From positions 1 to 30,241 of the forward strand of contig JAFGDV010000006.1 in the NCBI GenBank assembly GCA_016931955.1: a stretch of DNA of 30,241 nucleotides, given 5' to 3'. Position 1 is the stretch's first letter, and the number at the start of each line of letters is the position of its first letter. Of the stretch, positions 134-23,105 are shown piece after piece. A program made the position numbers and the translations under genes. The notes under the pieces are model-generated. The model ran no database searches. It saw only the letters and a list, made by a program, of their open reading frames with translations, and was not told the DNA's origin. This DNA comes from Candidatus Altiarchaeota archaeon (lineage in GTDB: Archaea > Altiarchaeota > Altiarchaeia > IMC4 > QMZM01).

Positions 134-436
134 ATGAAAAAAGAGTCCCTCCTGTTCTTGGTGATTGCGTTCTCGCAGTTAGTTGCTGGAGCGGACATAA
201 TACCCTTCGGGTTGAAGGAGGCCTCGATAGAGGAATGGATCAACCTCTTCTATGCGATGACTGTCGCAGTCGCAGTATTGATGATGATATTCCACGGCAT
301 CAAATGGATCACAGCAGACAACGACGAAGACAGAAAACAGGCGAAGGCTGGAATCAAAAACGTCTTCTTGGGCTTGGTTTTTATACTTTTAGCTGCTGCA
401 TTGGTTGACATGGCATATACCAAGCCAAGCTACTAG
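134..436 (+). CDS. VirB2/TrbC-like (T4SS-type) pilin
   Basis: Signal peptide, then two hydrophobic helices joined by the loop GIKWITADNDEDRKQAKAGIKNVFLGLVFILLA, the pattern of TrbC/VirB2-type pilins. Confidence 0.8.
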   Translation: MKKESLLFLVIAFSQLVAGADIIPFGLKEASIEEWINLFYAMTVAVAVLMMIFHGIKWITADNDEDRKQAKAGIKNVFLGLVFILLAAALVDMAYTKPSY

Positions 437-987
437 ATGGGGCAGGAAACCTCTCCAACGTAGAGATAATTCACGAGAGCGAAGGAGATGATTACAAGAG
501 CCAAACCTACTAAGACATAATATACTCCCTTCTTTGCGTCATCCCGTCCCTGAAAGTCATCAGCAGTCATCCACTTGAGTCCGTTCACCATCAAGGAGAG
601 AACCGCCAACCCAGCCGCGATGGACTCAAGAATCAGGATGATCTCACAAAACTCCTTATTTGCGGCACAGTTTCCAGCGCAGGATTTTACACAGGCATCG
701 AACTCGTCTGAGCCAGATGTATACTTGCTGCATGTGCCAGCTGAGCAGCAGCTTTCACAGTCGCCTACGATGCAACCTGTCATGGAGCCGCATTCTGCCG
801 CGCATATTACTGGACAGTTGCCTCCAGAAGCTGTGTTGCACATGACCGTGGGCTCGCTTCCATCCTTGCAATTGTTGCCGTCACCTGCAGTGCATTTATA
901 TGATTCAAAGGTGGAATCAGCGTATCCAATCAATGTGATAGCTATTAGGATAATGAATGCTTTTCTTGCATTGGGTTTCATTTTCAC
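433..987 (-). CDS. Secreted Cys-rich domain fused to C-terminal VirB2/TrbC-like pilin hairpin
   Basis: Signal peptide; Cys-rich middle; hairpin GLKWMTADDFQGRDDAKKGVYYVLVGLALVII. Alternative ATG start at 981. Confidence 0.75.
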   Translation of the reverse strand: MKMKPNARKAFIILIAITLIGYADSTFESYKCTAGDGNNCKDGSEPTVMCNTASGGNCPVICAAECGSMTGCIVGDCESCCSAGTCSKYTSGSDEFDACVKSCAGNCAANKEFCEIILILESIAAGLAVLSLMVNGLKWMTADDFQGRDDAKKGVYYVLVGLALVIISFALVNYLYVGEVSCPI

Positions 988-1017
988 TTAATTAATTTGT
1001 TTTGTTTGACTTAATAA

Positions 1018-2214
1018 TCAGCATGTGAACGACCCTGTAAAGAAGTAATTAGCTAATGATGCCGCTGTTATGATCAGTATCAAACCGACGAAGACGTATG
1101 CTATGCCCCTTTTCGCATCCTGTCGGCCCTCTATGTCATCAGACAGCATCCACTTCATGCCATGAAACATGATAAGCAAGATGGAAATGCCGGCAGCCAC
1201 TCCGTAGATGATGTAGAGGACGTTGCATAATTCCTCGTTGGCTCTGCAGACTCCCATGCAGTTTTCCATGCATACTTTTTTTTCTTCATTCCCGTAGGCG
1301 TACATTGAGACCTTATTACACCACAAGGGGCTATTGCAGCAGTTCTCACAGTCTGTACTGCATGTTGCCTCCCTGCCGCACTTAGAAGCGCATTGATACT
1401 TGCAGTCTACTGTGTTGCTGCATTTGACCTCAGGCTCCGCCCCATTTGAGCACTTGTAGTGCAACCCCATGCAGATGAAGTCGTCGTAAACGCAGGCTGC
1501 TGGAGGCCCCGCGTCGCATTTCATGGCGCATGCCTCCACAAGTGTGCACGAGCACTCTGCAGCTGATTCATCGTATTTGCATTCAACCAGGCAGGGCACG
1601 TTAGGATTGACTTGGATGCTGTCATCACACGTTAGACCCCCGTATGTCTGCCCGTACTCTAAACACGCTATGCCCTCGTATTCGCCGCAGCATCCTGGCG
1701 GAGTCACGAATAGGTGGGGATCGATACCTCCAAAGGGGCAAACATTTGTTGAATCTAGTGGGTCGTTAGAAAATCCAAGCTCGCATTCAAGGGATTCCAT
1801 TAGGGGGTTAGGGTTAGGTAAGGCGCCGATGATCGTGACTTTCGCCTCCCCTTTACCTGGGGGAGGGGGATTCTCGAGGCTGCACGCATCCCAGAGGCTC
1901 GGGACACTCGACAGCTTTATGGTTCCAGACTCGCCTGACTCAAGCCTCAACCAAAAGTCATTCGGCGAACGCTCCAATTCAAAATTATCCGCGTCGAATA
2001 GTACGGCTCTGTAGCAGCATTTCTCGGAACCTTCATTCGTAAACTTTACTGAGAATCTTATCTCATCCCCCCAATAGATTTCATGGGTTATCTCGACTTT
2101 GGTTTGGTCGATCTGGCATTTAGTTGGATCACAGCCTGCGTATGCGCTCTCAGCCAGAAAGATCGCCAAGAGGAGTACTGTAACCGCCTTGCTCAGGGAT
2201 TCCATCTTTAACAT
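1018..2214 (-). CDS. Signal peptide + Ig/CARDB-like segment + Cys-rich domain + VirB2/TrbC-like pilin hairpin
   Basis: Signal ends AESAYA; beta-rich GDEIRFSVKFTNEG...LESGESGTIKL; hairpin GMKWMLSDDIEGRQDAKRGIAYVFVGLILII. Confidence 0.75.
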   Translation of the reverse strand: MLKMESLSKAVTVLLLAIFLAESAYAGCDPTKCQIDQTKVEITHEIYWGDEIRFSVKFTNEGSEKCCYRAVLFDADNFELERSPNDFWLRLESGESGTIKLSSVPSLWDACSLENPPPPGKGEAKVTIIGALPNPNPLMESLECELGFSNDPLDSTNVCPFGGIDPHLFVTPPGCCGEYEGIACLEYGQTYGGLTCDDSIQVNPNVPCLVECKYDESAAECSCTLVEACAMKCDAGPPAACVYDDFICMGLHYKCSNGAEPEVKCSNTVDCKYQCASKCGREATCSTDCENCCNSPLWCNKVSMYAYGNEEKKVCMENCMGVCRANEELCNVLYIIYGVAAGISILLIMFHGMKWMLSDDIEGRQDAKRGIAYVFVGLILIITAASLANYFFTGSFTC

Positions 2215-2906
2215 ATTATGGTGTGGAGGAATATTAGTTCTACCAGCGTTGACGCAACGACTATGAGGATAAAGCCAGCAAGCACGTATTCCACTCCCTT
2301 TCTCGCATCCCTCCTCGCCTCAAGGTCTTCGCTGGTGATCCACCTGAATCCATGCAGTATCAGCATTATTATGCCTGCGAACATTGCCCCGTAACGCAGT
2401 AAATCGATGACGTTGCAAAACTGCCTGTTTGACTCGCAGACGCCGTAACAGGTGTGATAACACGCCTCCTCCGTCTTACTGCCTGCAGCATATATGCTGC
2501 ATACATCGGTTGCAGTGCACTGCTCGCAGTTATCTGTTAGCAGCGTCTTCCGGCCGCAGGCTGCTGCACACTCAAGCATGCAATCAGAGGAATCCGGTTC
2601 ACTCACCAACTTGGCAACGGAACACCTCACAGACGGTGTGCTGCCGTCCTTGCACATGTAGCTGCCGAAAGTCGCATAGGTTGTGCACATAAAGGGCCCA
2701 AAAGTGCAGTAGGCCCCGCCTGTTGGTCCGGGATATATCTCGCATCCGACCGCACAGTATTCTAGTATGGTAGTATCTGTGTCATCGACGACACATGCAT
2801 TGCTGGGGCTGCCGAAACACGGATCGCGACATTTCGTAGCAGAGACTGCTGAGTTCATGGATATGAAGAGGATGAAAGCCGCTAATATCCATGATTTATC
2901 ATTCAT
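2208..2906 (-). CDS. Secreted Cys-rich domain fused to VirB2/TrbC-like pilin hairpin
   Basis: Signal ends SAVSA; Cys-rich; hairpin GFRWITSEDLEARRDARKGVEYVLAGFILIVVA. Stop overlaps the next gene's start region. Confidence 0.75.
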   Translation of the reverse strand: MNDKSWILAAFILFISMNSAVSATKCRDPCFGSPSNACVVDDTDTTILEYCAVGCEIYPGPTGGAYCTFGPFMCTTYATFGSYMCKDGSTPSVRCSVAKLVSEPDSSDCMLECAAACGRKTLLTDNCEQCTATDVCSIYAAGSKTEEACYHTCYGVCESNRQFCNVIDLLRYGAMFAGIIMLILHGFRWITSEDLEARRDARKGVEYVLAGFILIVVASTLVELIFLHTIIC

Positions 2907-2988: not shown

Positions 2989-5900
2989 ATGGTGAAAAAA
3001 TCCAGAGACCATAGGTTTATTCTCCTCATCTCTGTCATCCTCATACTGACAGTGCAAGCCAACTCCCAAAGCCCCCCCAGCTGTACTATGACATTGTCGG
3101 TAAGATTCGATCCTATTGATCCAGGCGAAGACAACGAGTTTAGTGTGCAATTAAATCCAGTCCCTGTATGCCGGGATAAGCCTGTGAGATTAGAGGTCAT
3201 CGATCCCAACGGGGTCAGACATCAATACTATGGAATCACCGACATTAGCGCCCGCATACCGCCGGCTGGTTACCTGAGTTACCTGAAGCAATTCGATAAC
3301 ATGCCTAACACGGATGTGAGCGGCAGATACTATGTGATCGCGACCCTATACACGGGTGACTGGGTTCAAGACGACTTCGCCGTTAACGTAATCTGCGATG
3401 AACAAGCGAAGGACGGTGGGGGCACATTGATAGCTGAACGCCAGATCACCATAGGCAGCATCCCAGAGACCGTGGCCTCAGATATCGTCGCATGCACCGA
3501 CCTGAATGCTAACTGTGGCTACCTTGACCTGGTCTTGGATAAGGACTGCGCTCAAACCGGCGGCAGCTTTCCAGGCGCAGATCTTAACGTAGGAACTACC
3601 GAGCCAAGCTCAACAGACCACATAACTATCTGCACTAAACCGCTCCCCTCCTCCGAGCTGGAGTACACCTCAATAGACGGCAACAAGTACACGCTCATCG
3701 GCATGGCTGCTGAAGACTCTGACTCGACCCATTACTGGATGGCTAAGACCGGAGACGATGAATGCATAATGGGGGACGTCACAAGATGCGAGTTGCTCAC
3801 TAAGAGGCTTTTCATAGACGAACCACTTTACAGGGACTACATAAGAGACACAGTAAACGGCTTGGCATATGTTAACCCCCCCTGTTCGGGCTTCTATGAG
3901 GCCGCAGTGGGCTGGCTGTATGACATCGACACCCCAAGGTACCACGACATCTTCGGGGATTTGACTGATTTCCTCTACTGCCATCAGTCCCCCTTGCCGT
4001 CATTTAAACTCATAAAAGAGTCGCAGTGGTGTCATCTGATAAACCTGGGATGGTATTCCGTCGTCAACCTGACCAACAAGGAGGGTGTCACAAACATCGT
4101 CAACGACAGCATAACAGCTGAGAACCGATGGAATAATCTCTCAGGCTACATCGTCTTAGGGCATGCATGCCCCATCTGGCGGGATGTTGATAATTTACCC
4201 GCAGGCCTCCAAACCTTTGACGCTACCGCTGGGGGTTACAATGTTCCATGCCAGCTTCCTGACAGCGAACCTTTTACGCCCCCGTGTTCGGCATCAATCC
4301 CCAACCAATGCATCTACGTGTGGACGTCCTCTTATGCGTGGGATGGATTGTTTGGGTACGAGAAAAGCTTTGATTACACGTTGACTAATGCGGCTGAGGT
4401 GGAGGTATTGATGGCTGACAGCAACACAGACACCCAGATCCCCGCCTTTGATGTGATAAAGGAGGAGGTGGAGTCTATAAGGTCGCGGGTGACGGTGACG
4501 CCTAATATGGTCGCATCAGACTGTGGCGCTGTAGCCCCCATAACTGATGTCTTTTATTATGATAATCCGCTCCTCCCAGGATACCGTTCCTGCGATGACC
4601 ACAAACTAGGTTACTATAGATTGTTCGACCAGGATACTGTGTGGACTAAGATCTTCGCCGTGACGCCGATGCTCGAAGACGAGCACTGGGCGTGGGACTG
4701 GGATTGGAGCAAGGCAAGCGGACCAGATGTTGACTCCACCATCTCAATATACATTGGAGGAGGCTGCAAGAGGACCAGCGCATTCTACTTCAACTATCCT
4801 GGAGCAAAATCTAAGTACTTCGACTCAGCCAGCGGCACCAATACGCCTATCGTAGACTACGTGGATGTCACAGTAGACGACGGAGTTAATCCACCAAAAA
4901 TCTACAGTCATGTACCTGGGAGGAATCTGCTGCCTTTCCCGCCTGCGGATGCTGTAGAAGATGAAATCACCGGGCTTCCCATACCGGCACGCACCCACCC
5001 ATATGAGGGCATAAGGTATTCCTTCTTCAAAATAGACCATGTTCTGCCGGAGGATGCCGCCTACCTCAAGATAGACGTGGAATACACGTGCGAGACTAAA
5101 CTGGAGCGGACTCAATCACCAGTCTGCGGAGGAGGCACTGAGACAATAGAGGACGAAAGCATCGTCTCAGACAGCTACACCATAAAGTTCCTCGACCACG
5201 ATAATCCAAGAGAGAACTGCAGATGGAACAATCCCCTGGAGTGGATGGTGATTGAAGGTACTTGGCAGGGAAGTTTAACACCTGAGCATCCCGGGAGGTT
5301 CTGGGACGCCGACCTCGAGAAGAACATATTCCACCTAGAGGAGGATTCTACTCAAAACAGGCGGATGGTCTCAGTGGAAGAGGTAGAGGAAGAAGGCAAG
5401 ATAATAGAGGCGTTGGTCAGGGGCGAGGCTTCAGGTGATCAAGCTGATATGATGGTTGGATTCTACAGCGACGCTGCCGCAAATAACTATTGGTACGTTG
5501 ACATAGCCCGAGACGGCGGTGTAGGCGGTCAGAGCATAGTAATAGGCAGATATGAAGCGCCGTCGAGCTGGCAAGATAAGGAGTATGAAATTTCCCCTGT
5601 TCAGCCCCCGGATGAGGAGAAATGGTATTGGGTCAAGGTCTTCCTTGACGGGGATGACATATATGCGAAGGCTTGGCTCTGCGATCCCCCGGATCCCTGG
5701 GAGTGCAGTAAAGATGAGCCAGCAGGCTGGATGATACAATACGAGATGCAGGCAGGTGACACTAAGTATGGCCACCACTGGGTTATCGGTACCGACATAG
5801 GGGATACTGGCGATGAGGAATTCTGGTTTGACACCGAACCCATGTGCGGGATAGACATCAGCGGCTACTTTACGCCACATGATACACCCTTAGGTTACGC

Positions 5901-7164
5901 AGTCATCACCGACGGATTCATAGACATAAATATTAAGCCGGACACCCTCAGCGGATTCAACGTCAGCTTTAGAAACACAAGCATCATATACGAGCAGACC
6001 GCGTATCCCGCTAAACACATACTGTACAAGAAGGGAAAACCAGAAATACCTCCTGAATATCCTGACATCTTTGAGTTCTACTACGAAGACAAATACGGCT
6101 ATGAGTCGGAAATATATGGTTTCAATGAATTATGCAATCTGCCTCCCTGCCCAGCGAATTGCCACTGTGAGGAGAACGACATATTCAAACCGGAATGCGA
6201 TAACGTCGACCGAACAAAGGGTTCATGGCATTACTACCCCGACGGCTGCATATGCGCCCCCAGCGAATGCTATCCTGACCCGTGCAGCTCCGACAGGACA
6301 TACCACGAATTTGAGGGCTTATACTATGACTTCGTTGACTTCAATGCAATGCGTCTTTCAAAGGAGGAGGAATACCTTCAGACGGTGATGGACGCCGACG
6401 TGGCGGATGGTGAGACCGCCTTTTGGATAGAGGGGAGAGATCTGAAGGCTGAACTGGATGTTGGAAAGATAAACTCCGCTGAGGGCAGATATCGGCTCTA
6501 TTTCTCTGGCACAAACGTCAAAGTAACGGACTTTAAAGACGACGCTCAGATCATAGTATCCACGCACTTCAGGAACTACACATACAAGCTCAAGGATGTT
6601 TTAAGGCCGAGGGGCAAGGCAGTCATCGCCTATACAGTGACTCCTCCTAAGGAGTTCATAAAAACAGGTGACATCGTCACCATAGATCTGGACCTAATAT
6701 GCGGCGCAACAACCATAAGCAACGCAGAAGTCGAAGTAATCATCCCAAACTATGAGGGCGAGCTTTTCGGCGTTAGATGGGAGAAGCCCAGGATCGAGTT
6801 AGAGGATATTGAGTTGGATTTCTGGGCTGGACCTGTTTTCATGCCCACCATTAAACCCGACTTCAGGGTTACAGGGGATAGATCCTATGTGACGACCGAC
6901 GGTACGGGACACGCAAGCTTCGGCCTTATGATGAAGCAGAAGGCTGCACATGTAATACTCTACTACGAAGGCGGTGATTTATGCAGTGAAGCCGAGGCCA
7001 GCTTCATCTTAGGGAGAGAGGACTTGTCATCCATAATAACGAGTGTTGACTTCATCCTATTGCTGATCATATTCATCCTCCTCATATTCTCGTACAGGTG
7101 GTTTAAGAGGGGCAGACTGGACTTCTATGAGATGTGGCAGGAGTTCAGAGGGGAGAAGGACTAG
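2989..7164 (+). CDS. Large exported, C-terminally membrane-anchored surface protein (1391 aa)
   Basis: Signal peptide (FILLISVILILTVQA); acidic, Cys/aromatic-rich beta-type sequence; possible ConA-like/lectin sandwich at about 5240-5840; C-terminal TM FILLLIIFILLIFSY followed by basic RWFKRGR. Confidence 0.75.
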   Translation: MVKKSRDHRFILLISVILILTVQANSQSPPSCTMTLSVRFDPIDPGEDNEFSVQLNPVPVCRDKPVRLEVIDPNGVRHQYYGITDISARIPPAGYLSYLKQFDNMPNTDVSGRYYVIATLYTGDWVQDDFAVNVICDEQAKDGGGTLIAERQITIGSIPETVASDIVACTDLNANCGYLDLVLDKDCAQTGGSFPGADLNVGTTEPSSTDHITICTKPLPSSELEYTSIDGNKYTLIGMAAEDSDSTHYWMAKTGDDECIMGDVTRCELLTKRLFIDEPLYRDYIRDTVNGLAYVNPPCSGFYEAAVGWLYDIDTPRYHDIFGDLTDFLYCHQSPLPSFKLIKESQWCHLINLGWYSVVNLTNKEGVTNIVNDSITAENRWNNLSGYIVLGHACPIWRDVDNLPAGLQTFDATAGGYNVPCQLPDSEPFTPPCSASIPNQCIYVWTSSYAWDGLFGYEKSFDYTLTNAAEVEVLMADSNTDTQIPAFDVIKEEVESIRSRVTVTPNMVASDCGAVAPITDVFYYDNPLLPGYRSCDDHKLGYYRLFDQDTVWTKIFAVTPMLEDEHWAWDWDWSKASGPDVDSTISIYIGGGCKRTSAFYFNYPGAKSKYFDSASGTNTPIVDYVDVTVDDGVNPPKIYSHVPGRNLLPFPPADAVEDEITGLPIPARTHPYEGIRYSFFKIDHVLPEDAAYLKIDVEYTCETKLERTQSPVCGGGTETIEDESIVSDSYTIKFLDHDNPRENCRWNNPLEWMVIEGTWQGSLTPEHPGRFWDADLEKNIFHLEEDSTQNRRMVSVEEVEEEGKIIEALVRGEASGDQADMMVGFYSDAAANNYWYVDIARDGGVGGQSIVIGRYEAPSSWQDKEYEISPVQPPDEEKWYWVKVFLDGDDIYAKAWLCDPPDPWECSKDEPAGWMIQYEMQAGDTKYGHHWVIGTDIGDTGDEEFWFDTEPMCGIDISGYFTPHDTPLGYAVITDGFIDINIKPDTLSGFNVSFRNTSIIYEQTAYPAKHILYKKGKPEIPPEYPDIFEFYYEDKYGYESEIYGFNELCNLPPCPANCHCEENDIFKPECDNVDRTKGSWHYYPDGCICAPSECYPDPCSSDRTYHEFEGLYYDFVDFNAMRLSKEEEYLQTVMDADVADGETAFWIEGRDLKAELDVGKINSAEGRYRLYFSGTNVKVTDFKDDAQIIVSTHFRNYTYKLKDVLRPRGKAVIAYTVTPPKEFIKTGDIVTIDLDLICGATTISNAEVEVIIPNYEGELFGVRWEKPRIELEDIELDFWAGPVFMPTIKPDFRVTGDRSYVTTDGTGHASFGLMMKQKAAHVILYYEGGDLCSEAEASFILGREDLSSIITSVDFILLLIIFILLIFSYRWFKRGRLDFYEMWQEFRGEKD

Positions 7165-8189
7165 ATCTTAAGTAGAATCCTTATGAACGTGATTAAATCG
7201 CCTTGGCAGAGATAGGTCAACAGAACCCCGAAGAAGAGGAATGGGGCGAACGGCAGCGTCTGCTGTATTCTCACGTGATCGGATTCTAGTTTTTTTTCTT
7301 TGTATAGTCTATTGATTAGATCGATTTCTTTTTGCGTTACACCCCTCCCAAGATTTATGATAACCTTATTTTCTGACTTTATGTCTTCTGCCAACATCAT
7401 GCAGGGCTTCAGCTCATCTATTCGTATGGATGTCGTCGTTTTGATCAATCTGCTTAGGCTTATGAGAAACATAACGACCATGAAAACAAAAATCAGGGAG
7501 GCAAAGAACCTCAGAAAATCCATGGTGAGAACCGTATCATAGTCAAATAAAAGCCTCAGCACAGAAAACAGTATGGATGCCTGCGTCAAGGTGATGAATT
7601 TTGTCTTCCTGAATGCCTCAGGTATGGCCATGAACAGGAGCAGGTATGTTAAGAATGTTAGCTGCATTCCCATAAACGAGAACAGTCCGTCGAAGAACCA
7701 TAGGAATCCGAAAAGGAACAGTATCCTACCAGCTAACGTCTTCAGATCGAATACCTTCCTAGGCTGAATCTTTTCTTTGATGGAGAACGGGAGGGTTAGG
7801 AGTAATAAAAAGAAGAGTGGGATGAATGTGTTGCCGAGGATTGTGAATGATGGGAAGTATTCTACGTAGCCTAACCGGTATGTAGTTAATGGGATTAATG
7901 CCGCATATGCTGAGAATAGTTTCGCATCCCCTGCAGTCCACATTTTGAACGTCCACAATGAGTAACTGACTAGAAACGCTATAATCACGTTGATCAATAA
8001 CGCAGGGTAGTAGTCTTGGCTTAGACTATGGTTTTCGATGAAACCAGAGAACATCAGGGAATTCATAAGGACGGCGAAGATAAACGCTAAAAGGATGTAT
8101 TTGTTCCTTATCTTCCCGCAGCGGATGTCTTCGTAGGATGTTATAGAACCAAAGACCAAGATGAATGGAAAAAATATGTTTGAGACCAT
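7161..8189 (-). CDS. A24-family prepilin peptidase (FlaK/PibD/EppA-like aspartic membrane protease)
   Basis: First Asp motif TSYEDIRCGKIRN, second WTAGDAKLF, C-terminal LPFAPFLFFG. Multiple TM helices; the 342-aa length fits the longer EppA-like type. Confidence 0.85.
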   Translation of the reverse strand: MVSNIFFPFILVFGSITSYEDIRCGKIRNKYILLAFIFAVLMNSLMFSGFIENHSLSQDYYPALLINVIIAFLVSYSLWTFKMWTAGDAKLFSAYAALIPLTTYRLGYVEYFPSFTILGNTFIPLFFLLLLTLPFSIKEKIQPRKVFDLKTLAGRILFLFGFLWFFDGLFSFMGMQLTFLTYLLLFMAIPEAFRKTKFITLTQASILFSVLRLLFDYDTVLTMDFLRFFASLIFVFMVVMFLISLSRLIKTTTSIRIDELKPCMMLAEDIKSENKVIINLGRGVTQKEIDLINRLYKEKKLESDHVRIQQTLPFAPFLFFGVLLTYLCQGDLITFIRILLKI

Positions 8190-8253: not shown

Positions 8254-8688
8254 ATGTCGAAGAAAAGGCTTAAATCTGCTGTAGACAATATGGAGGTTTT
8301 TGACGCTGAAAACTATCTCATCTTATCCGTCAACCCAAGGATCTATAGCCTTGATGTCGTCTATTATGCCGCCTACGTCTTATTGGATAGGGCGTATGTC
8401 ATACTTGGAGGAGACCCGAAGAAAAAGATCCTGGTAGAATTGAGACCGAAGGATAACACAGACCTGAAAAGCTTGGGCAGGGAATTCAACAACGAGTTGT
8501 TGAATTACGCAGTGTACCTGAAACAATCAGCGAAAAATCAAAAGCTGAAGGAGGCTATCCTACAGAGGGTTTTGATGACCAATCTCGCTCCTGTGGAAGG
8601 CTGTGAACCGAATGAACTACTAGGGGATCCTGGAGGAATCACCAAACCCTGGGGGAGAGAGCATGGCAGGAAAAAGAAAAAAGGTTAG
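8254..8688 (+). CDS. hxsD: His-Xaa-Ser system protein HxsD-like
   Basis: VNPRIYSLDVVYYAAYVLLDRAYVIL...GREFNNELLNY resembles HxsD; directly upstream of an HxsB-like rSAM. Confidence 0.75.
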   Translation: MSKKRLKSAVDNMEVFDAENYLILSVNPRIYSLDVVYYAAYVLLDRAYVILGGDPKKKILVELRPKDNTDLKSLGREFNNELLNYAVYLKQSAKNQKLKEAILQRVLMTNLAPVEGCEPNELLGDPGGITKPWGREHGRKKKKG

Positions 8689-8926
8689 TGTGGATGAGAG
8701 AAAAAATCGAGTAGTGGCTGTTTTCGATACCCGATTTTATACCCCCGAAAGCATAAAATCGTCTGCTGAAGACTTCGAGGACTGTTGTCGTCTTCAAATT
8801 AGGTCCTGGAAAGATGATATAACTGTGGTATTGTCTCCTAAGAGCAGAGACATCAACTTAGACTTCCTCGGATATGAGTTCTATAATTATGTCCTTGCCA
8901 GGATGAGATCAAAAATGCCTGGTTAA
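8663..8926 (+). CDS. Second, shorter HxsD-like protein
   Basis: FDTRFYTPESIKSSAEDF...GYEFYNYVL parallels the Y-S/T...G-x-EF-x-N pattern of the preceding gene and overlaps it. Confidence 0.6.
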   Translation: MAGKRKKVSVDERKNRVVAVFDTRFYTPESIKSSAEDFEDCCRLQIRSWKDDITVVLSPKSRDINLDFLGYEFYNYVLARMRSKMPG

Positions 8927-8932
8927 TTTAAG

Positions 8933-10357
8933 ATGACTTTCAGCTACTTGGACACAGAAAAGTGTGTTGACTACACAGAAAACCAATACTTCGTGGAGAG
9001 CTTAGGGCAAGACACTTTTTTGATAACTACGGAACATGGTGCCTGGGTTGTTTTAAATAGGGAGCAATACAAACTGCTTAGATTGAACCGATTACATGAG
9101 GATTCAGGCCTTTTCCAGGAATTAGAGAGAAAGGGGGTGATCGTCACCAAAAGGAATGTAGACAATATAATAAACCTTTACAGGCTAAGAAGAGACTTCC
9201 TCTTTATGGGAGTGAATCTGCACATAATAGCTGTGACGTCAAAATGCAATCATAGATGTATTTATTGTTTCACTGGGTCACGGAAAAACAGAGGGGATAT
9301 GGATGGAGACACTGCAAAGGATGTGGTGGATTTCATATTCCAGAGCCCAAACCCTGCAATAAATATAGAGATCTCGGGAGGTGAGCCGTTGATGAATTTC
9401 GACGTTGTTAGATTTATCATAGAATATTCTGAAAAATTGAATAAAAAGTGCGGAAAGAATCTGAGCTTCTCTGTCGCCACAAACCTGAGCCGGATGGATG
9501 AGGACATCTTAGAGTATTTGATGGATAAAAAAGTGTCTATATCCACTTCCTTGGATGGACCAAAGAGAGTGCATGACAAAAACAGGAAGTATCTAGGAGG
9601 TAGCAGTAGCTACGAAGAAACGGTTTATTGGATTGACGTCATCAAAAGGGATCACCAGTATCCTCTCATAGGCGCACTGCCTGTGATCACAAGATATTCA
9701 TTAGCCCATGGGGGGGAGATAGTCGACGAATACGTCAAACATGACCTTGGTTGTTTAAGGCTTAAATACATCTGTCCTACAGGTGACGCACAGAAGAGGT
9801 GGGACAGGATAGGATACACATCTGAGGAGTACCTTGTTCTATGGAAGAATGTTTTGGAGTACATCCTTGAGCTGAATTTTAGCGGCATAGAATTCAACGA
9901 AGGATTGACGACTCTTGCATTGAAAAAGATTTTATGGACGCGGGATCCGAACTATGTTGACCTGAGTATGCCCTGTGGTGCTGGAATAAGACAGATCGCA
10001 TACGACGAGGGGGGTAACATATACACCTGTGATGAAGCAAGACCTTATGACATATTTAGGCTGGGCAATGTGGGTAGAGACGGATACATGGAAACAACAA
10101 CTTCGAGGATCGTTGCCAGTATTGTCGGCATATCCTCTGGCTACCCCCTCATCTGTGATTTCTGTGTTTGGAAACCATACTGTGGAGTCTGCTGTGTCAT
10201 ATCATACGCGCAACAAGGGAATATAATACCAAAGCTGCCTCTTGATTTCAGATGCAGGATACATAAGGGGATATTCGAGTATGTATTCAAAAAGCTGCTT
10301 TCATCGCCTGAGTGGAGAAAGATTTTTATGAAGTGGGTTAATATACCAATGTTCTAG
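8933..10357 (+). CDS. hxsB: Radical SAM/SPASM peptide maturase, HxsB-like
   Basis: CNHRCIYC rSAM motif, GGEPL, SLDGP; SPASM region YVDLSMPCGAG...YTCDEAR...CDFCVWKPYCGVC...C; N-terminal LITTEHGAWVVL; hxsD context. Confidence 0.8.
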   Translation: MTFSYLDTEKCVDYTENQYFVESLGQDTFLITTEHGAWVVLNREQYKLLRLNRLHEDSGLFQELERKGVIVTKRNVDNIINLYRLRRDFLFMGVNLHIIAVTSKCNHRCIYCFTGSRKNRGDMDGDTAKDVVDFIFQSPNPAINIEISGGEPLMNFDVVRFIIEYSEKLNKKCGKNLSFSVATNLSRMDEDILEYLMDKKVSISTSLDGPKRVHDKNRKYLGGSSSYEETVYWIDVIKRDHQYPLIGALPVITRYSLAHGGEIVDEYVKHDLGCLRLKYICPTGDAQKRWDRIGYTSEEYLVLWKNVLEYILELNFSGIEFNEGLTTLALKKILWTRDPNYVDLSMPCGAGIRQIAYDEGGNIYTCDEARPYDIFRLGNVGRDGYMETTTSRIVASIVGISSGYPLICDFCVWKPYCGVCCVISYAQQGNIIPKLPLDFRCRIHKGIFEYVFKKLLSSPEWRKIFMKWVNIPMF

Positions 10358-10396: not shown

Positions 10397-10762
10397 ATGA
10401 GTATGAAAAAGAGACTTCCAAGGATAAGGAAGGAATTATGTTCGTTTCTGTCTGAAGAAGACGGCAGGATACCGAAGAAGTCGATGCTTGCAATCGGTTC
10501 TACTATGGGTGGCATAGCTTTGGCCGGATTATTCTCTGATGTGATACCGTCTGCTGAGGCAACATGCCCCTCAGAAACAGTATTCACTTGTTGGCATAAT
10601 AATACCATTAACGCAGCCTATGATTCAACAATGTGTGCAATAACAGCCACCCACAATCTCCACGCGAATTTCAGCGTGGGTCCTGGGGAACATGGAACCA
10701 GCGGTTGCCGGCACGACAACAGTTGCCCACCGCCAAATGATGGATTGGATCCCTGCCTATGA
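10397..10762 (+). CDS. Candidate RiPP precursor (HxsA-positional analogue) with H-x-N motifs and export signal
   Basis: 121 aa, immediately after hxsB. Basic leader, FLSEEDG, hydrophobic stretch, AEA, then a core with 5 His (HNN, HNL, HAN, HGT, HDN) and 6 Cys. Confidence 0.6.
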   Translation: MSMKKRLPRIRKELCSFLSEEDGRIPKKSMLAIGSTMGGIALAGLFSDVIPSAEATCPSETVFTCWHNNTINAAYDSTMCAITATHNLHANFSVGPGEHGTSGCRHDNSCPPPNDGLDPCL

Positions 10763-10810: not shown

Positions 10811-11662
10811 ATGATTGGAATCATCCCCATTAGCAGATATATCTCAATCTGTTCATTTTTACTTTTTGCTGCCATGCCTTTGATGACTATGGTAACCGCC
10901 TCATCAGCGCAAGATAGGGGACCTGAGGGATATTGTCTGGCCGCCTTATCATACATCTCTGACACGGAACGATCGATGAAGCTGCCGTTCAAGGATTTTG
11001 AAGAATTCGCTAATAACAGCCTTAGAGTGGACGCTAAATACGATCCGTTGATGCTTATCAGATTTGTTCCGGATGATGGGAATGATCGCTTTTATAGCCT
11101 GATTATGTTCGATCTATACAAAGAAATGGATATTGCCTTCTATTACAGCGTGGATAACGAGACCCAGAAAAGCGATTTCATCGGTTGTTCCCTATCTTCC
11201 GATGAATACCCGATAAATCTCGGCTGGTCTGATATCGTGTTAGTTCATAATGAACAAAGAATTCAGAGGGTATTGGTGGACAATGTTACATTCTATCGTA
11301 TAGATGACATGGCCAACCTTTCAACACCGGATGGTTCTCTCAGATGGAACATACATAAAACGCTTCTGCTATACGGAGGGGACTCCTCTGTCATGGAGGG
11401 GTGGGGTGCGTTCAAGAACTGGATAGGTAAGAATTTCTATTTTGAAAGAGATGTGGGTATGTACATCTTGGAGGATAGGACTACTAGAATAGAGACTCCA
11501 GATATTTTTATGAAGCGACAAACAGAATTGAGAGAACGACAAACAGAATTGAGGGGACTTATTCATGCAACACAGGTAATTATTGGTTTTTTGGTCATTT
11601 TGTTGATCATTTATCTCATAGTAGAGAAGAGGAAAGAACTCGGTAGGTGGATGGAATCATGA
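10811..11662 (+). CDS. Exported protein with C-terminal membrane anchor, unknown function
   Basis: Hydrophobic N-terminus ending ASSA; C-terminal VIIGFLVILLIIYLIV followed by EKRK. Confidence 0.65.
   Translation: MIGIIPISRYISICSFLLFAAMPLMTMVTASSAQDRGPEGYCLAALSYISDTERSMKLPFKDFEEFANNSLRVDAKYDPLMLIRFVPDDGNDRFYSLIMFDLYKEMDIAFYYSVDNETQKSDFIGCSLSSDEYPINLGWSDIVLVHNEQRIQRVLVDNVTFYRIDDMANLSTPDGSLRWNIHKTLLLYGGDSSVMEGWGAFKNWIGKNFYFERDVGMYILEDRTTRIETPDIFMKRQTELRERQTELRGLIHATQVIIGFLVILLIIYLIVEKRKELGRWMES
11516..11553 (+). repeat. In-frame tandem duplication (21-bp period)
   Basis: cgacaaacagaattgag at 11516-11532 and 11537-11553, encoding RQTELRE-RQTELR. Confidence 0.85.
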
Positions 11663-12765
11663 TGGCGAGAAAAAAGGTCGTAATAGCACTTATAGTAATG
11701 GGTATCGCCTACGTTGGGGTGACTGGTATATTTGATCTGACACCCATTATAATGCCTGATGTCCGGCTCATAGACTATAATGTCACAGGGCCTGTTTTTT
11801 TGGGTGTTGAGCTTAATAGGGTAACGGATTACCACATCTACATGTATGACATATCGAATGGGAAAATTTCGACCCTCGTATCGAACAAGGAGGGCTTATT
11901 CAGCCCAGCGATAGACGGGGACAACGTCGCTTATATCAGCTACAGTGGCGGTAATCCTGACATCCACGTAATCAATATACCCACGAAGGAGATTAAACAT
12001 CTGACATCAGACCCATATCAACAGGATTACCCCCATATCCATGAAAACAGGGTCGTATGGGAGGATGAAAGAAGCAAATACGCTGAAGGAAGCAGGGTAA
12101 CAAACACTCTGGACGTGTATATGTATGACTTGAACACCGATGAAGAGAAACCGATCATAACAACACAGGGTAAAGAGAGGTTCCCTTCGATCTATGGAGA
12201 CATAGTGGTCTGTGAGGTCTACAGTGACCTTGCATGCGAAAAGATTTATTTCTATGACCTATCAACAGGAGAACTGACGGAGATAGCCTCAAATTCACTG
12301 GTAATGGGTCCACCACACGTATACAAGAACACCGTAGTGTGGGCTTCTTTGGTTGAGGGGGACGAAATCTTAACCTATGATATAACTACAGGTAAGACAC
12401 GACAGATCACAAGTTCGGCAGAGAATGAGATGGATACGGACATCTACGAGGACAAGGTGGTCTATGCTAAAGGATTTCTGGCCAGTGACTTAGATATATA
12501 TATCTACGACATAGAATCTGGTCTCGAGGACAGAATCACTAACACACCAAATAACTTGGAGAGGCTGCCCAGGGTCTATCAAGACAAAATTGTCTATATC
12601 AGATGGGTGGGGGATTATACATATGTCTACCTCTACGACCTGAAAACTGGGGAGGAGAGCATGATAGAATCTCCGTCGAAATTCAATTATTTGGTGGATA
12701 TCTGGGAAAACAGGATAGTTTGGATGGGCTTCGATGTTTCTGAAGAAAAAGAGGATTCACTGTGA
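11659..12765 (+). CDS. Membrane-tethered TolB-like/archaeal beta-propeller repeat protein
   Basis: N-terminal TM; repeated blades such as IYMYDISNG, PAIDGDNVAY, VYMYDLNTDEE, PSIYGDIVV, IYIYDIESG. Start moved to ATG 11659 (ATGA overlap with upstream stop, AGGTGG RBS). Confidence 0.75.
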   Translation: MMARKKVVIALIVMGIAYVGVTGIFDLTPIIMPDVRLIDYNVTGPVFLGVELNRVTDYHIYMYDISNGKISTLVSNKEGLFSPAIDGDNVAYISYSGGNPDIHVINIPTKEIKHLTSDPYQQDYPHIHENRVVWEDERSKYAEGSRVTNTLDVYMYDLNTDEEKPIITTQGKERFPSIYGDIVVCEVYSDLACEKIYFYDLSTGELTEIASNSLVMGPPHVYKNTVVWASLVEGDEILTYDITTGKTRQITSSAENEMDTDIYEDKVVYAKGFLASDLDIYIYDIESGLEDRITNTPNNLERLPRVYQDKIVYIRWVGDYTYVYLYDLKTGEESMIESPSKFNYLVDIWENRIVWMGFDVSEEKEDSL

Positions 12766-12791: not shown

Positions 12792-13682
12792 ATGAAAGAT
12801 AAAAAGGGGTTTTTTGATGAATTAAAAAGTCTGCGTTTAGGTTGTGATGCGATTAAGGATATTGTTCTAGTATATGATGGGGTTAAACCCTCGACAAGAT
12901 TAATGTTACCACAATACTCACTTAAATCACTTCAGGAGTTTTTGGTAAGATATGGGCTCTGCATTATAAGATCAGACTATAAAGTTGTAACGAAGAAGGA
13001 TAGAAGCAAGGGCGGTTGGGGAAATAAAATTCTGAGGATAGTCGACGCAAACTCCGATGAAGGAGAACCCTCTTATTATATCGCAAAATCAGATGAGATT
13101 GCAAAAGAGGCAAAGACTGCGGATTTTGTAGATCCCGACGAATTCGGTCAAACCTTGGGTTATCCTATATGCTGTCAGGAATTCTTCAAGAAGTATTTTC
13201 CGTTAGCAAACGAAAAACAGTGCGACTTCGTCCTCTATACATTAAAGGAAACAAAAGAAGACTACCCATATGACCTCTACAACAATAATGCTTCCAGGTA
13301 CTTTGGTTATTCTCTTTTAAGTCACTTTCCATGTTCCTTCAACTGCAAGGAGTCGTCGAAGCTTGCAAGGAGTTACTACAAAGTGTTCGAAAGATACTCA
13401 CCAAGTTGGGCGAATAACTTCATCTATTGTCAACAGTCAGCGATCATCTACACTGAATATGGTGGTATTTTTTTAATCAAAAATTTCGAGCTTAATGGGG
13501 ATATCCTACGGTATGGCAAATCAAGCCGATTGTATTCGACTATAACAAACAAGAACCTGGAATTGCTTAGTAGGGGAAACAATATATTGATCAAATCCAA
13601 GAACAACTTTTCAATCCGCCAGGGAGATAGGCTTCTAAAAACATTTAAGGGCGAGAATGTTGGGTTGCTTGTTTTTGGATAG
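12792..13682 (+). CDS. DUF483-like protein
   Basis: Motifs GVKP, FGQTLGYPICCQEFF and HFPCSFNCKES, as recalled for DUF483. Confidence 0.65.
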   Translation: MKDKKGFFDELKSLRLGCDAIKDIVLVYDGVKPSTRLMLPQYSLKSLQEFLVRYGLCIIRSDYKVVTKKDRSKGGWGNKILRIVDANSDEGEPSYYIAKSDEIAKEAKTADFVDPDEFGQTLGYPICCQEFFKKYFPLANEKQCDFVLYTLKETKEDYPYDLYNNNASRYFGYSLLSHFPCSFNCKESSKLARSYYKVFERYSPSWANNFIYCQQSAIIYTEYGGIFLIKNFELNGDILRYGKSSRLYSTITNKNLELLSRGNNILIKSKNNFSIRQGDRLLKTFKGENVGLLVFG

Positions 13683-13687
13683 GCTAC

Positions 13688-14956
13688 CTAGGTCGTTTTT
13701 TGGATACACAGATCCATCAGACAGAGTGTGTGATTGTCTCCGCATCTTATGCAGTATCTCTCCAAAACCAGAAAGGCCTTGAATTTTTTTAGGTCTATAT
13801 TGCTCAATAAATCCGCGTGAAGTTCAAGACGATTCTTTTTCCTGCAGAAGTATATCTTTTCGGGGGGAAGACCTTTCTTTTTGAGTATCCTTATCAACTC
13901 CTTGATCTTTTCGAGTGATTCTGTGACCACTATCTTTTTTATGCATCCGTTTTCTGTGACTTCTTCATGAGGCTTTCTTATGATTTCGGTCATATTTTTG
14001 ATGATCATAGCTCCTTGAACATGTTTTTTATAGTAACTTGGGCAAAAATTGATTGGTAACTCTATGTTCTTCTCTATTGTAGAATCTATTATCCTCAAAG
14101 CGGCCAGTTCGCTGCCATAAACTGGCATTATGTCGCTCATGAAATCATTTTCTGAGGAACCAATTAGAACCTTATAGCCTCTACTGCTCATGTCCCTCAG
14201 ATTATTCTTGCTAAACGTCAACTCGTGAAGATTCAGGTATTTTACACCGATTTTTTTCAACTCTGGCAGCAGTTTTTTTACTTTTTCTTCATCTTCGGGG
14301 ATTGCTGGTATCTCCACTGACACAACATCAACGCTTTTCACGGCATTTTTTAGCGGCTTTGTGTCGTATTCTCTTGCTGCTAGATCAAACCTGAGCTCAT
14401 CTAAGCCGCTATCCCTGAGTGCATTCAGCGTTTTTTTAGAGGCCAAGTCGCCGTTGGTGTAAAGCCAGATGTAGAAATCCTCAGACATATTATCCTTCAT
14501 TGCTGAGATGAAATCAAGAGCTCTGTCGAGTACACATAAGGGTTCACCGCCGGATATTCCAACACCCTCTATATTCCATCTCTTCAGGAAAGAGATCAGT
14601 TGACTTGGATTATGAAAGATGCTGTAATCGCATTTCACGTAATCTTTTTCTGGTTTGTTCCTTGGTTGGGGACAATAGAAGCAATGCCTTGTGCATTTTT
14701 CTGTTATGAAGATGCAAATCCATTTACCTCTTTTACATAATCTGCAGCCCTTGGATAGGTCGCCGTAGAATAGACTGTTTCCTTCTTGGGTTGCCTTGAG
14801 TCCTCTGGAGATCAAGCCATCTATAAGCTGCCGTCTTTCAGAGCGATACACATCGATCTCTGCCTTTGAGGGCCTCCCTATTCGTCGGTAAAGCTTCTTG
14901 TTCTCATTCTTTATCTCACGTATTTTTTCGGGATTTGGATAATACCATCCTTGCAT
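13688..14956 (-). CDS. Radical SAM protein, uncharacterised archaeal-type (COG2108/MJ1632-like)
   Basis: GDLSKGCRLCKRGKWICIFITEKCTRHCFYCP, ISGGEPL, WLYTNG, GLDELRFD, VEIPAIP, LNLHEL. No SPASM domain. Confidence 0.75.
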   Translation of the reverse strand: MQGWYYPNPEKIREIKNENKKLYRRIGRPSKAEIDVYRSERRQLIDGLISRGLKATQEGNSLFYGDLSKGCRLCKRGKWICIFITEKCTRHCFYCPQPRNKPEKDYVKCDYSIFHNPSQLISFLKRWNIEGVGISGGEPLCVLDRALDFISAMKDNMSEDFYIWLYTNGDLASKKTLNALRDSGLDELRFDLAAREYDTKPLKNAVKSVDVVSVEIPAIPEDEEKVKKLLPELKKIGVKYLNLHELTFSKNNLRDMSSRGYKVLIGSSENDFMSDIMPVYGSELAALRIIDSTIEKNIELPINFCPSYYKKHVQGAMIIKNMTEIIRKPHEEVTENGCIKKIVVTESLEKIKELIRILKKKGLPPEKIYFCRKKNRLELHADLLSNIDLKKFKAFLVLERYCIRCGDNHTLCLMDLCIQKTT

Positions 14957-18368: not shown

Positions 18369-21300
18369 ATGAAAAAAACTCTGTTACTCTTAAGTTCATT
18401 TTTATTGATTCTTCTAGTTCTAAATACGGTTAACGCAGCAGATACTGATGGAGATGGAGTTCCTGACGCCTCAGATAATTGCCCCAGTGATCCAAACCCT
18501 GGACAGGACGACCTCGATGAAGACGACGTTGGGGATGTATGCGACTGCGATGCTGACGGTGACGGAGTTGACGCTGATGAGCCTATCAAAGGCTGTTTCG
18601 GTACAGACTGTAACGATTTTAATAAAGATGTTGTTTCAAAGATAACCTGTTATGTGGACTGCGACGACGACAACTTCGGAGACCCAGCAGTATCAACGAC
18701 TCAATGTAAACAATGGTGCACGCAGATTATACTGCCAATAATATGCCTTAATAACGACTGGGTGCCTAATGACGATGACTGCGATGATGATCCTTTAGCA
18801 TGCGGCGCATACTGCTACCCAGGAGGTACAGAGGATACGTGTAACGACTGGGATGAGAACTGTAACGGGATGGCTGATGACGACCCCCCAGACGGCGACG
18901 GAGACGGGCATACAATCTGCGATGGAGACTGCAATGACGGCGACGGCACTGTCTGGGATACGATAGACTGTTACCCGGACTGTGACGGAGACCATCAAGG
19001 AAATCAATTTAGTCCAGCAACGACCGCATGTGTGCTAAAATGCTCTGATCTACCACTTACATGCAACGGATTTGTTTACGTAGACAATAAACTGGACTGC
19101 GACGACTCCAACGGAAACACCTTCTTCAACGCGCCGGAGTCATGTGACGGCATAGACAACAACTGCCCAAATGATGGGGGATATGGGCTATGCGATGAAG
19201 GCTGCGACGATGACGACGATGACTACTGCGACTGGACAACGACTTTTGTCGCCCACGCTCTGAACGCCTGTGGACTAGGCACCTGTCCTGGGGGAAATGA
19301 TAACCTTTGCCGATGCAACAAAGCAGGCGACTGCAAAGATAATGATAATAAGGTATTCCCCCAGGCCATAGCCTCTGAAGGCGATACAGCCTACTGCGGA
19401 GTTGATAGTGACGGCGACGGCATTCTCGACTGCTGTGATGGAATAGACAACGACTGCGACGGTAGAACCGATGAAGGCTGCCCCATGCCGTATCCAAGCC
19501 TCCAGGTCAACAATAGTCTAAATGTTGTGATTATTCCTTATCAGGCAATGCAGTGGTGTGATCTGAGCTACTGGAGTGGTTCGGCGATGGTTACAAAATG
19601 TTACTACCATATTGGAGGAGACGCCGACTTCAAGGACGCAGGCGACTACAAGGTAGCGATAGACTGGGATGTTGAGCCTGTTTATAAAACAGGGAGCTTT
19701 ATTGTCACAATAAACCATGACACACAACAACAATCCTGCGATTGCTTTTATCCCGACGACTGCATGGGACTGTCGTGCTGGCTTCCCGGTTCTGCTCTCA
19801 ACCCTGACTGGAACATGCCAGGCCTGGAAAAATTCTGCTGCGGCGACGACGAAAACGAAATCTATGTTGGAGGCACGGACGGAACATTCGCCTGCTGCGA
19901 CAACAAGAAGGAAGATGGGATAACAAGTCTCGGCGGAGAAGAGTGCGTGATTCATGGAGAATGCCAGAATCGGTTGGTCGGCCCCAACGAGGACGGCAGC
20001 CCCGGACTCTGCAACACTGTAGACGACGACTGCGATGGGATAGTGGACGAAAACTGCATGTGTGATTCCTCCAAGACCAACTGCGACCAAGACCTCGACT
20101 GCCCAACCTACCTGTGCAACGACACCTACGGCAACACTAAATCCTGCTGGAAGGTCGGCGGAGACGCCGACCCAGTGGGGGCGAATGCGTGCTGCGGGAG
20201 TATGACTTCTTCACCTGGATTTCCAAATACGCCGGGAGAGTACTATATCTGGAATCCATGCGATGGAAGCGACGCCTGCTGCGATCAAGCGGGAGAGTGC
20301 GTCCTCGGAGGCGTCTGCATGGGCTTCGTAAAGGTTCCCGGCCCCGAGCCCGCATGCGACTTCATAGACAACGACTGCGACTGCTTGGTGGATGAAGACT
20401 TCGACGTAGACGGGGACGGTTTCCCCTCATGCGCCGGAGACTGCGATGACTTTGATATTCATAGATTCCCCGGCAACCCAGAGATATGCGGCGACGGCAT
20501 AGACCAGGACTGCGATGGAATAGACCCAATATGCGGCAGCCCCGATGAGATAACCCTCGGAAACCTGTGCAGGCTCGTCTACGACACAAGCTACCTACTT
20601 GTCTATATCGCCGCCGCGATAACGGTGCTGTTGCTGGTCATCGGAGGCTTAACGCTCATCGGCTCAGAGGACGTTGAAGCCGCCGCCAAGGCGAAGAGCA
20701 ACATAAAGAACACCGTAATCGGCTTAATCATCGTCTTCGCTTTGCTTGGAGCAGGACACATGCTGGAGCCAGAATGCGTCTACCTGCCGGGGACAGGCTA
20801 CCAGCCGCCCTTCTATTACGGCGAACCCCCGCCTCTGTCGGTGGTTATCTCAACACCAACGGATATGCAATTCTTCGCTCCATCTGAGCTCGTAACATAC
20901 AACGCCGTCATATCCGGTGGCTCGCCCCCCTACGTGTACGTCTGGGACTTCGGAGACGAATCACCGACTGTGTGGGGCAGCATCACCACCTCGGGACCGT
21001 GCGGCGGGGAAACATACAAATACGACGTCAAAGGCAAGGGGAGATACACTGTAAGGATTACAGTCACGGACAGCGCGGGCAGAAAAGCCTGGGATGAGGT
21101 GGACGTCTTAATCGACATGGTGCTTGCTGAAATAGATAAGCCGCCTAACGGATTCATCGGAATCGTGGATGAACCAGTTGACTTCGAGGCGTCAATCTAC
21201 GGAGGAGAACTGCCGTATGCCGCTTGGTCATATGGTTGGTATACCGACGCCGGTGCTTTCCCTGGTGGCACCCTTGAGGACCTGCCTGGTTGGAGCGGTT

Positions 21301-23029: not shown

Positions 23030-23105
23030 GGAGCATTATCCAAGATCACATCGATGTAGATAACTCACTGGATTGAAAAAAATGCGGAAGCTTGGAGTAT
23101 TTGAT

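Follow-up and report, generated by a model that had tools for sequence, protein, structure and literature searches.

A precursor peptide with conserved His-x-Asn motifs as a possible target of HxsB in an Altiarchaeota archaeon

In the bacterial HXS anti-phage system (HxsD-HxsB-HxsC-HxsA, TIGR03976-03979; Li et al. 2026, PMC13128918), a His-motif substrate with a processed N-terminus is exported, according to the accessible text of that paper. A contig of a Candidatus Altiarchaeota archaeon (JAFGDV010000006.1 of assembly GCA_016931955.1), analysed over a stretch of 30,241 nucleotides called the window below, holds an hxsB gene and, directly after it, a gene for a small peptide for which export and processing are also predicted. 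This peptide carries H-x-N motifs and no H-x-S. The question raised by the locus is what HxsB may do to such a peptide. An earlier note, made from the letters of the window, had offered His-Asn crosslinks or a Cys/His metal-binding peptide as possibilities. The genes of the locus are as follows.

7161..8189, minus strand: A24 (prepilin-type) membrane peptidase, divergent, a candidate leader protease (PF01478, 32.7 bits, cut-off 26.5)
8254..8688, plus strand: hxsD-like gene with the LLNY form of the LLNDYxLRE motif (TIGR03976, 47.3 bits, just under the cut-off of 50)
8663..8926, plus strand: second, short HxsD-related gene (NF038315, 47.9 bits, cut-off 41)
8933..10357, plus strand: hxsB, radical SAM/SPASM maturase (TIGR03978, 394.9 bits, cut-off 370), with CxxxCxxC and seven SPASM Cys intact
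10397..10762, plus strand: precursor gene, HxsA3/A4-like, an ORF of 121 aa, or 119 aa from the second ATG at 10403 (database form P0001)
10811..11662, plus strand: orfX, predicted surface protein with a signal, a beta-rich domain, and a C-terminal membrane helix (AlphaFold2, AF2, pLDDT 65.5; 7 homologues)
11647..12765, plus strand: beta-propeller protein with an N-terminal hydrophobic segment (TIGR04275, 133.9 bits, cut-off 85)
12792..13682, plus strand: DUF483-like gene (PF04467, 19.7 bits, below the cut-off of 25)

No stops were found in the locus genes of the window, and A24-like ORFs were also seen by eye in related loci. For orfX, no Pfam or NCBIfam match was obtained, and a VIA search with its model, which barely probed the beta domain, gave a best Z of 7.6 with long-helix matches only. 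ORFs of the size and look of the DUF483-like gene were noticed by eye in other archaeal Hxs loci (L015:8201-8998, L022:254-1090, and L024:1161-2201), and this recurrence suggests an accessory gene. A radical SAM gene of 422 aa (13688-14956, minus strand), 33% like a gene on the C27 contig, lies between the DUF483-like gene and an ABC transporter, and is absent there in the related loci L001 and L018. Elsewhere in the window, four proteins encoded at 433-2906 (minus strand) and 18369-21890 (plus strand) end in a TrbC/VirB2-like T4SS-pilin domain (PF18895), one of them carrying PKD and Cu-binding MopE-type repeats, and large orphan ORFs occupy 2989-7164 and 23073-29120.

Within the precursor, the following parts were distinguished, all on the plus strand.

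10397..10465: N-terminal leader tag, aa 1-23, LPxI(K/R)K...FLxxExG, drawn from conserved columns, with a putative role in enzyme recognition
10466..10561: predicted export signal, aa 24-55, with a basic stretch, a hydrophobic helix, and an A-x-A site (AF2 helix 27-46; -3/-1 columns)
10562..10762: predicted mature core of 66 aa following AEA, net acidic by composition count (1 K/R, 6 D/E)
10580..10675: predicted beta-hairpin, strands aa 62-76 and 81-93 (AF2), with Tyr75 and the clade-conserved Cys80 at the turn
10589..10603: motif 1, C65-W-H67-N-N69, the family-wide H-x-N, whose Cys at -2 is invariant in the close clade alone
10652..10669: motif 2, H86-N-L-H89-A-N91, a derived form of the family H-x-H-H-x-S/N
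10706..10726: motif 3, C104-R-H106-D-N108-S-C110, clade-specific, in place of an H-x-S tail

The composition given in the earlier note for the core after AEA was confirmed by count, namely the triplets HNN, HNL, HAN, HGT, and HDN, three H-x-N, zero H-x-S, and six Cys; the core also contains five His, seven Asn, and five Ser. At least three H-x-N arose in 0.64% of 200,000 composition-keeping shuffles of the core. The leader was matched by the HxsA3 model NF038309 over aa 7-47 only (27 bits, cut-off 65, E 2.9e-6). In the alignment of the listed sequences, P8 was conserved in 186, K12 in 179, E21 in 188, and G23 in 189 of 189, and at the cleavage site V or A stood at -3 in 84 and 69, and A at -1 in 158, of the 189. 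The AF2 model, computed with 130 sequences, had the helix at 27-46 and the hairpin at 62-76/81-93, with motif 1 on the first strand and a pLDDT of 76-87 over aa 61-90; the last 30 residues were unreliable, motif 3 having a pLDDT of 49-62. Foldseek returned no match to this model at E<=0.001, and the nearest clusters in a protein atlas, which serve as leads only, were unnamed hypothetical proteins at 0.85-0.86.

A search with the single precursor sequence retrieved itself alone, and a profile of four precursors was required. With this profile, 57 proteins and the best 150 of 366 cluster representatives were collected, giving 196 distinct sequences including that of the window; as the profile already contained H-x-N, the family counts of this motif carry this bias. 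The alignment comprised the 189 sequences of up to 180 aa, 130 of which were used for AF2, and a stricter leader pattern dropped 15 of the 196 and left 181 cores. H-x-N was present in 168 of the 196 listed cores, compared with a mean of 78 and a maximum of 97 in 200 shuffles, so that its conservation among homologous precursors, on which the earlier note had let its idea stand or fall, was borne out. In total, these listed cores held 319 H-x-N against 102 after shuffling, and 693 H-x-S against 272. Among the 181 listed cores, H-x-N occurred in 158 and H-x-S in 157, and 24 were without H-x-S; H-x-N is the family norm and not a peculiarity of this peptide.

Judged by the alignment columns (His67 in 173, Asn69 in 152, and His86 in 183 of 189 listed sequences), the first H-x-N ranks with the best-conserved motifs that the family has in its core, and motif 1 is the standard first motif. 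For motif 2, the 130 listed sequences had H86 in 129, H in 97 and L in 5 at position 88, H89 in 108, and S in 62 and N in 37 at position 91; HNLHAN corresponds to the family H-x-H-H-x-S/N, position 88 being Leu and position 91 Asn. The HxsA3 model was matched by 129 and the HxsA4 model (NF038313) by 57 of the 130 listed members at E<=0.01. The leader type is thus shared with these precursors, whereas the H-x-N hairpin of the present core is not what the HxsA3 model names. Seven non-seed precursors lie beside hxsB (L017, L018, L020, L022, L026, L051, and L060), and by eye six of them have H-x-N, three at the hairpin start. Many bacterial precursors adjoining hxsB appeared by eye to carry H-x-S only, and H-x-N is therefore not required by the enzyme family.

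Several members of the family differ in build. The L017 precursor (3546-4052, plus strand) has an 11-residue repeat alternating C-x-H-x-S and H-x-N. In L025, a precursor (241-885, plus strand) whose leader is HxsA3-like and whose core contains numerous C-W-D-N / W-S-N repeats lies beside HxsD (731-1270) and an HxsB-like protein (1276-2697; 289.6 bits, cut-off 370). Two precursors of the L025 leader subtype with W-x-D, W-G-D, and H-A-W repeats lie in L119 (G006:C65) at 312-623 and 742-1014, both on the minus strand. P0111, P0119, P0126, P0142, P0145, P0188, and P0195 are family members of 170-280 aa; the C-terminal domain of P0126 and P0195, starting CCF(P/V)AGT, presumably resembles a Hint domain, and that of P0188 is taken by us to resemble an intramolecular chaperone.

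The closest homologues form a clade of four, namely this precursor (P0001), P0003, P0006, and P0007, which are 53-60% identical. Clade-wide features are C-x-H-x-N, Y-D-x-x-x-C, and T-H-N-[LF], after which come a single isolated His, G-C-x-H-x-N-[NS]-C, and a final Cys, together giving five Cys. Two C-x-H-x-N motifs are present in all four members, with zero or one H-x-S, and the middle motif reads HAN in two of them, the present peptide included, HTS in P0006, and HYN, displaced by three residues, in P0003. More distant neighbours have F-T-N (P0008) or Q-V-N (L018) at motif 1. The overlapping W-x-N pointed out in the earlier note does exist, W-H-N overlapping the first H-x-N, but it was rejected as a target: W66 is Asn in P0003, P0006, and P0007, and in a 151-nt contig of depth 3.4 from another study, probably from a close strain, W66 is Val and N68 is Ser, which is weak evidence against W-x-N. 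The same contig retains C65, H67, N69, Y75, D76, and C80 (9 of its 17 differences being listed). Similarly, the six Cys are present, but were rejected as a family feature; five are fixed in the clade, the sixth (core position 2) is private to this protein, and 69 of the 196 listed cores lack Cys.

Of the 61 genomes of the phylum, 6 carry both hxsB and the precursor gene, and the two were found in no others; they are non-adjacent in G007 and G006. In G007, the precursor (L117, C1 ~948,400-948,800) is surrounded by small genes resembling toxin-antitoxin genes, and its hxsB is ~290 kb away. The nearest named relative of the window is the Altiarchaeales contig L001, whose HxsB is 72% identical. 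In a tree of 81 HxsB-like sequences, from 88 loci supplied, the two enzymes grouped with a support of 0.995, and both cores are H-x-N-only. These two enzymes also have a 3-residue deletion after CxxxCxxC in common, and the five HxsBs of the clade deviate from most others at the conserved positions 113, 147-148, 251, 278, 346, and 371. On viral contigs, 79 loci had an HxsB-like match, the best being 32-36% identical to the HxsB of the window, and PADLOC gave only weak viperin matches, to rSAM domains.

For HxsC, the other enzyme of the bacterial system, four queries (TIGR03977, NF038332, an archaeal HxsC-like protein, and a custom profile) were run against this genome (G000, 92% complete), and no HxsC-like gene was found; the absence counts rest on this completeness and on 83% for G025. 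The best HxsC-like match in the genome (C38) was rejected as the tetraether synthase Tes (639.7 bits, cut-off 450). The radical SAM gene at 13688-14956 was likewise rejected as HxsC, with 45 of 267.9 bits, no family at E<=1e-15, and its absence from that place in L001 and L018. In L018, an HxsC4-like gene follows the ABC ATPase (115 aa seen). The HxsC-like gene of L001 is broken: a 73-bp loss between two 13-bp repeats removes CxxxCxxC, and a frameshift and a second internal deletion are also present. HxsC4-like genes accompany H-x-S-bearing precursors in L017, L020, L022, L051, L060, G014, and G007. That the loss of H-x-S may be tied to the loss of HxsC should be taken as a lead only. The association looks loose, since the L018 precursor contains a single strict H-x-S, G042 combines one H-x-S with the lack of an HxsC4-like match, and the genomes compared are related and small in number. 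In G006, two HxsB and six or more HxsC4-like genes were counted.

The comparison of L001 with L018 showed how enzyme and peptide travel together. Both are near-identical relatives (~98% DNA) that differ in an exchanged 4.1-kb block containing the catalytic part of HxsB, the precursor, orfX, and the propeller, with its right end in the DUF483-like gene. DNA identity per 100 nt was 93-100% outside L001 901-5000 and 23-79% inside, except for one bin of 98% (1301-1400). HxsD, the HxsD-like protein, and three ABC proteins were 98-99% identical, compared with 72% for HxsB, 39% for the precursor, 30% for orfX, 51% for the propeller, and 73% for the DUF483-like protein. The left junction lies at approximately residue 76 of HxsB, near-identical before and divergent after. 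In these sequences, the N-terminal domain of HxsB, the putative leader binder, is fixed, while its catalytic and SPASM domains are exchanged together with the core. The exchange may be a product of chimeric assembly, but both alleles recur in other assemblies (P0209 and P0198).

Before a mechanism is considered, the locus should be set beside known systems. HxsB over its cut-off, HxsD-like proteins, and the predicted exported substrate resemble the HXS system as described in PMC13128918. Unlike that system, this locus has no H-x-S repeats, no HxsC found, and no peptidoglycan-binding domain seen; its core of 66 aa is acidic and predicted to form a hairpin, and it differs further in having two HxsD-like genes, an A24 peptidase, and an archaeal host. 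Thus, judged by sequence, the locus works like the HXS system in the described parts, yet it is a variant in which neither H-x-S repeats nor HxsC were found, and for lack of both it was not filed as an HXS member. The main text of PMC13128918 does not contain 'archaea', 'Asn', or 'HxN'. Triceptides (XncB, OscB, MscB, HaaB, YhhB, and HtkB; accessible parts of PMC11002830 and PMC11499958) share an aromatic-X-X motif, here a conserved H-x-N, and HtkB also takes Phe or Trp in place of His; however, HxsB lies far below the cut-offs of the 3-CyFE families (YhhB 68.6 of 445, GrrM 64.5 of 310, XyeB 50.1 of 450, and FxsB 49.8 of 370 bits), the present substrate has a predicted export signal, and a His-Asn ring is not among the links described in the accessible parts of those papers. 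With ranthipeptides (PapB, CX3D, PMC9413430; archaeal CrpC, PMC13692751; accessible parts of both), the locus shares a SPASM enzyme with an N-terminal extra domain and the C-X3-N spacing of the clade, whereas Cys is not family-conserved here, the acceptor would be Asn, and the PapB model reached 149.7 of 340 bits. By maturase score, the locus falls outside the known triceptide and ranthipeptide families. The literature searched, which covered neither most subscription journals nor the supplements of PMC13128918, gave no account of H-x-N or of an archaeal Hxs variant, and PMC9062424, in its accessible part, treats HxsB as uncharacterised.

Since H-x-N is conserved and the gene is paired with hxsB, the possible His-Asn crosslinks of the earlier note became the leading hypothesis, the chemistry itself being deduced by analogy. 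We propose, tentatively and with a little under half our confidence, that HxsB, with no need of HxsC, forms a crosslink between the His and the Asn (i and i+2) of each motif, and that the HxsA3/A4-like peptide undergoes its predicted export afterwards. The N-terminal domain of HxsB and the two HxsD proteins would bind the conserved leader. By analogy with triceptide synthases, the 5'-deoxyadenosyl radical would then take the C-beta hydrogen of Asn, and the resulting radical would add to the His ring, with -2 Da per motif and up to -6 Da; the i/i+2 side chains would lie on one face of the predicted beta-strand. Subsequently, the A24 peptidase may remove the leader tag and signal peptidase may cut after AEA, and outside the cell the Cys of the clade would form disulfides or bind metal, rather than being a radical SAM target. 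In the least certain step, the product, orfX, and the propeller would form an allele-specific set that acts on the cell surface, with defence against viruses as the probable purpose. This role is the weakest part of the proposal; the patchy presence and the block exchange would fit a defence function as in E. coli. As the core is acidic, the basic-repeat DNA-binding model of E. coli HxsA does not carry over.

Motif conservation, gene pairing, joint exchange, and the broken HxsC-like gene in L001 were observed directly. In favour of the His-Asn reading, the alternation of S and N at +2 (position 91) was counted, as were the aromatic-x-Asn cases, namely F-T-N in P0008 and the HxsB-like enzyme beside the W-x-N repeat precursor in L025. 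As reported in the accessible parts of PMC11002830 and PMC11499958, links of the C-beta of Asn to Trp or Phe, and of His-C2 to the C-beta of Ala, Arg, or Lys, are known. Counted against the reading were the higher scores of thioether-forming than of cyclophane-forming profiles on HxsB, Q-V-N at motif 1 in L018, and the displacement of motif 2 by three residues in P0003. The only measured product, as given in the accessible text of PMC13128918, comes from E. coli, where SHRSS carries a change of +8 Da (+C, -4H); this is not a plain -2 Da ring. According to the same text, this product needs HxsB, HxsC, and HxsD and was docked to HxsC, and the roles of HxsB and HxsC in E. coli could not be told apart because loss of either abolished recoverable product.

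This product bears on the most probable of the other explanations, though we consider it unlikely: HxsB would act on H-x-N but form another bond, for instance an N-C linkage at the imidazole, or a modification that includes one carbon, as the +8 Da change does. The +C/-4H change on SHRSS argues for it, and so does the profile of DynA, whose chemistry is an N-C link to His (PMC11002830, accessible part), with 98.4 bits on HxsB, above the triceptide synthases. Moreover, the five clade HxsBs have F/Y where 71 of 76 others have Q/H and S where 73 of 76 have Q, two positions that are active-site-proximal as defined in the accessible part of PMC10288494. However, these residues also occur in the H-x-S-rich allele L012 and thus do not track H-x-N, and the +8 Da change needed both enzymes, whereas HxsC was not found in this genome. 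In a further explanation, which is less probable still, HxsB is of the ranthipeptide type and joins Cys to the C-beta of Asn in the two C-x-H-x-N motifs. Their C-X3-N spacing, found twice in all four clade members, matches the CX3D spacing of PapB (PMC9413430), and archaeal ranthionine formation exists (PMC13692751), as the accessible parts of these papers report. Among the non-Hxs profiles, PapB scored best on HxsB; the QhpD-type, also a thioether former, reached 122 bits and SCIFF 108.5 bits (cut-off 425). NxxcB makes a Cys-Asn beta-thioether. Against this stand the family cores: Cys is at -2 in 18 of the 319 H-x-N of the listed cores (1.6 times background), the 69 listed cores without Cys are joined by the G042 precursor, which lacks Cys beside an HxsB of the same clade, and the conservation of His would be needless.

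The metal-binding peptide of the earlier note remains a weaker reading than the His-Asn crosslink, and as the main function it appears clearly improbable, slightly less so than Cys-Asn joining. Here, the hairpin would bring His67/Asn69 opposite His86/His88, Cys would supply additional ligands, and HxsB would modify elsewhere or tune the site. The predicted hairpin, the H67-H86 spacing, which is odd in 87 of 121 listed members as one face demands, and the five Cys fixed in the clade are consistent with it, as is an ABC transporter with a periplasmic-type binding protein that follows in the window, L001, and L018. However, the exchanged block does not include this transporter, neither L012 nor L013 was seen to have it, and a system carried by 6 of 61 genomes and exchanged as a block between near-identical genomes is unlike housekeeping uptake. 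The ligands also vary: in two of the ten nearest precursors, His67 is replaced by Phe or Gln although Asn69 is retained, position 88 is Leu or Phe within the clade, and the number of Cys ranges from 0 to 10 or more across the listed cores. Metal binding and a His-Asn crosslink are compatible and not exclusive. Finally, the locus could be a decaying remnant that has shed its H-x-S repeats and HxsC and whose peptide has ceased to be modified; the broken HxsC-like gene of L001, the lack of an HxsC find in this genome, the need for all four hxs genes in E. coli (PMC13128918, accessible text), and an hxsD just below its cut-off point that way. This was considered very improbable, as four homologues at 53-60% identity retain both C-x-H-x-N and five Cys, HxsB is full length with all cluster Cys, and the locus genes are free of stops.

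Returning to the His-Asn reading, a wider and rather doubtful form of it is a one-enzyme branch in Altiarchaeota. In this form, HxsB alone would make His-Asn cyclophanes on an exported hairpin peptide, HxsC would serve only H-x-S repeats and have been discarded with them, and enzyme, peptide, and two cognate surface proteins would be swapped as a cassette under virus pressure. H-x-N itself is the family norm, but the HxsB-only, allele-swapped form makes the reaction of HxsB testable. In this naturally occurring HxsB-only arrangement, the substrate is short and its motifs are three and well defined, and since L001 and L018 supply two matched enzyme-substrate alleles in one background, both chemistry and specificity are directly testable. 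The swap of a catalytic domain and its peptide, with the leader-binding end fixed, illustrates modular RiPP evolution in a clear, naturally occurring example and gives a hint of selection driven by conflict. If the one-enzyme branch is true, it would mean a cross-linked anti-viral surface peptide in archaea without peptidoglycan.
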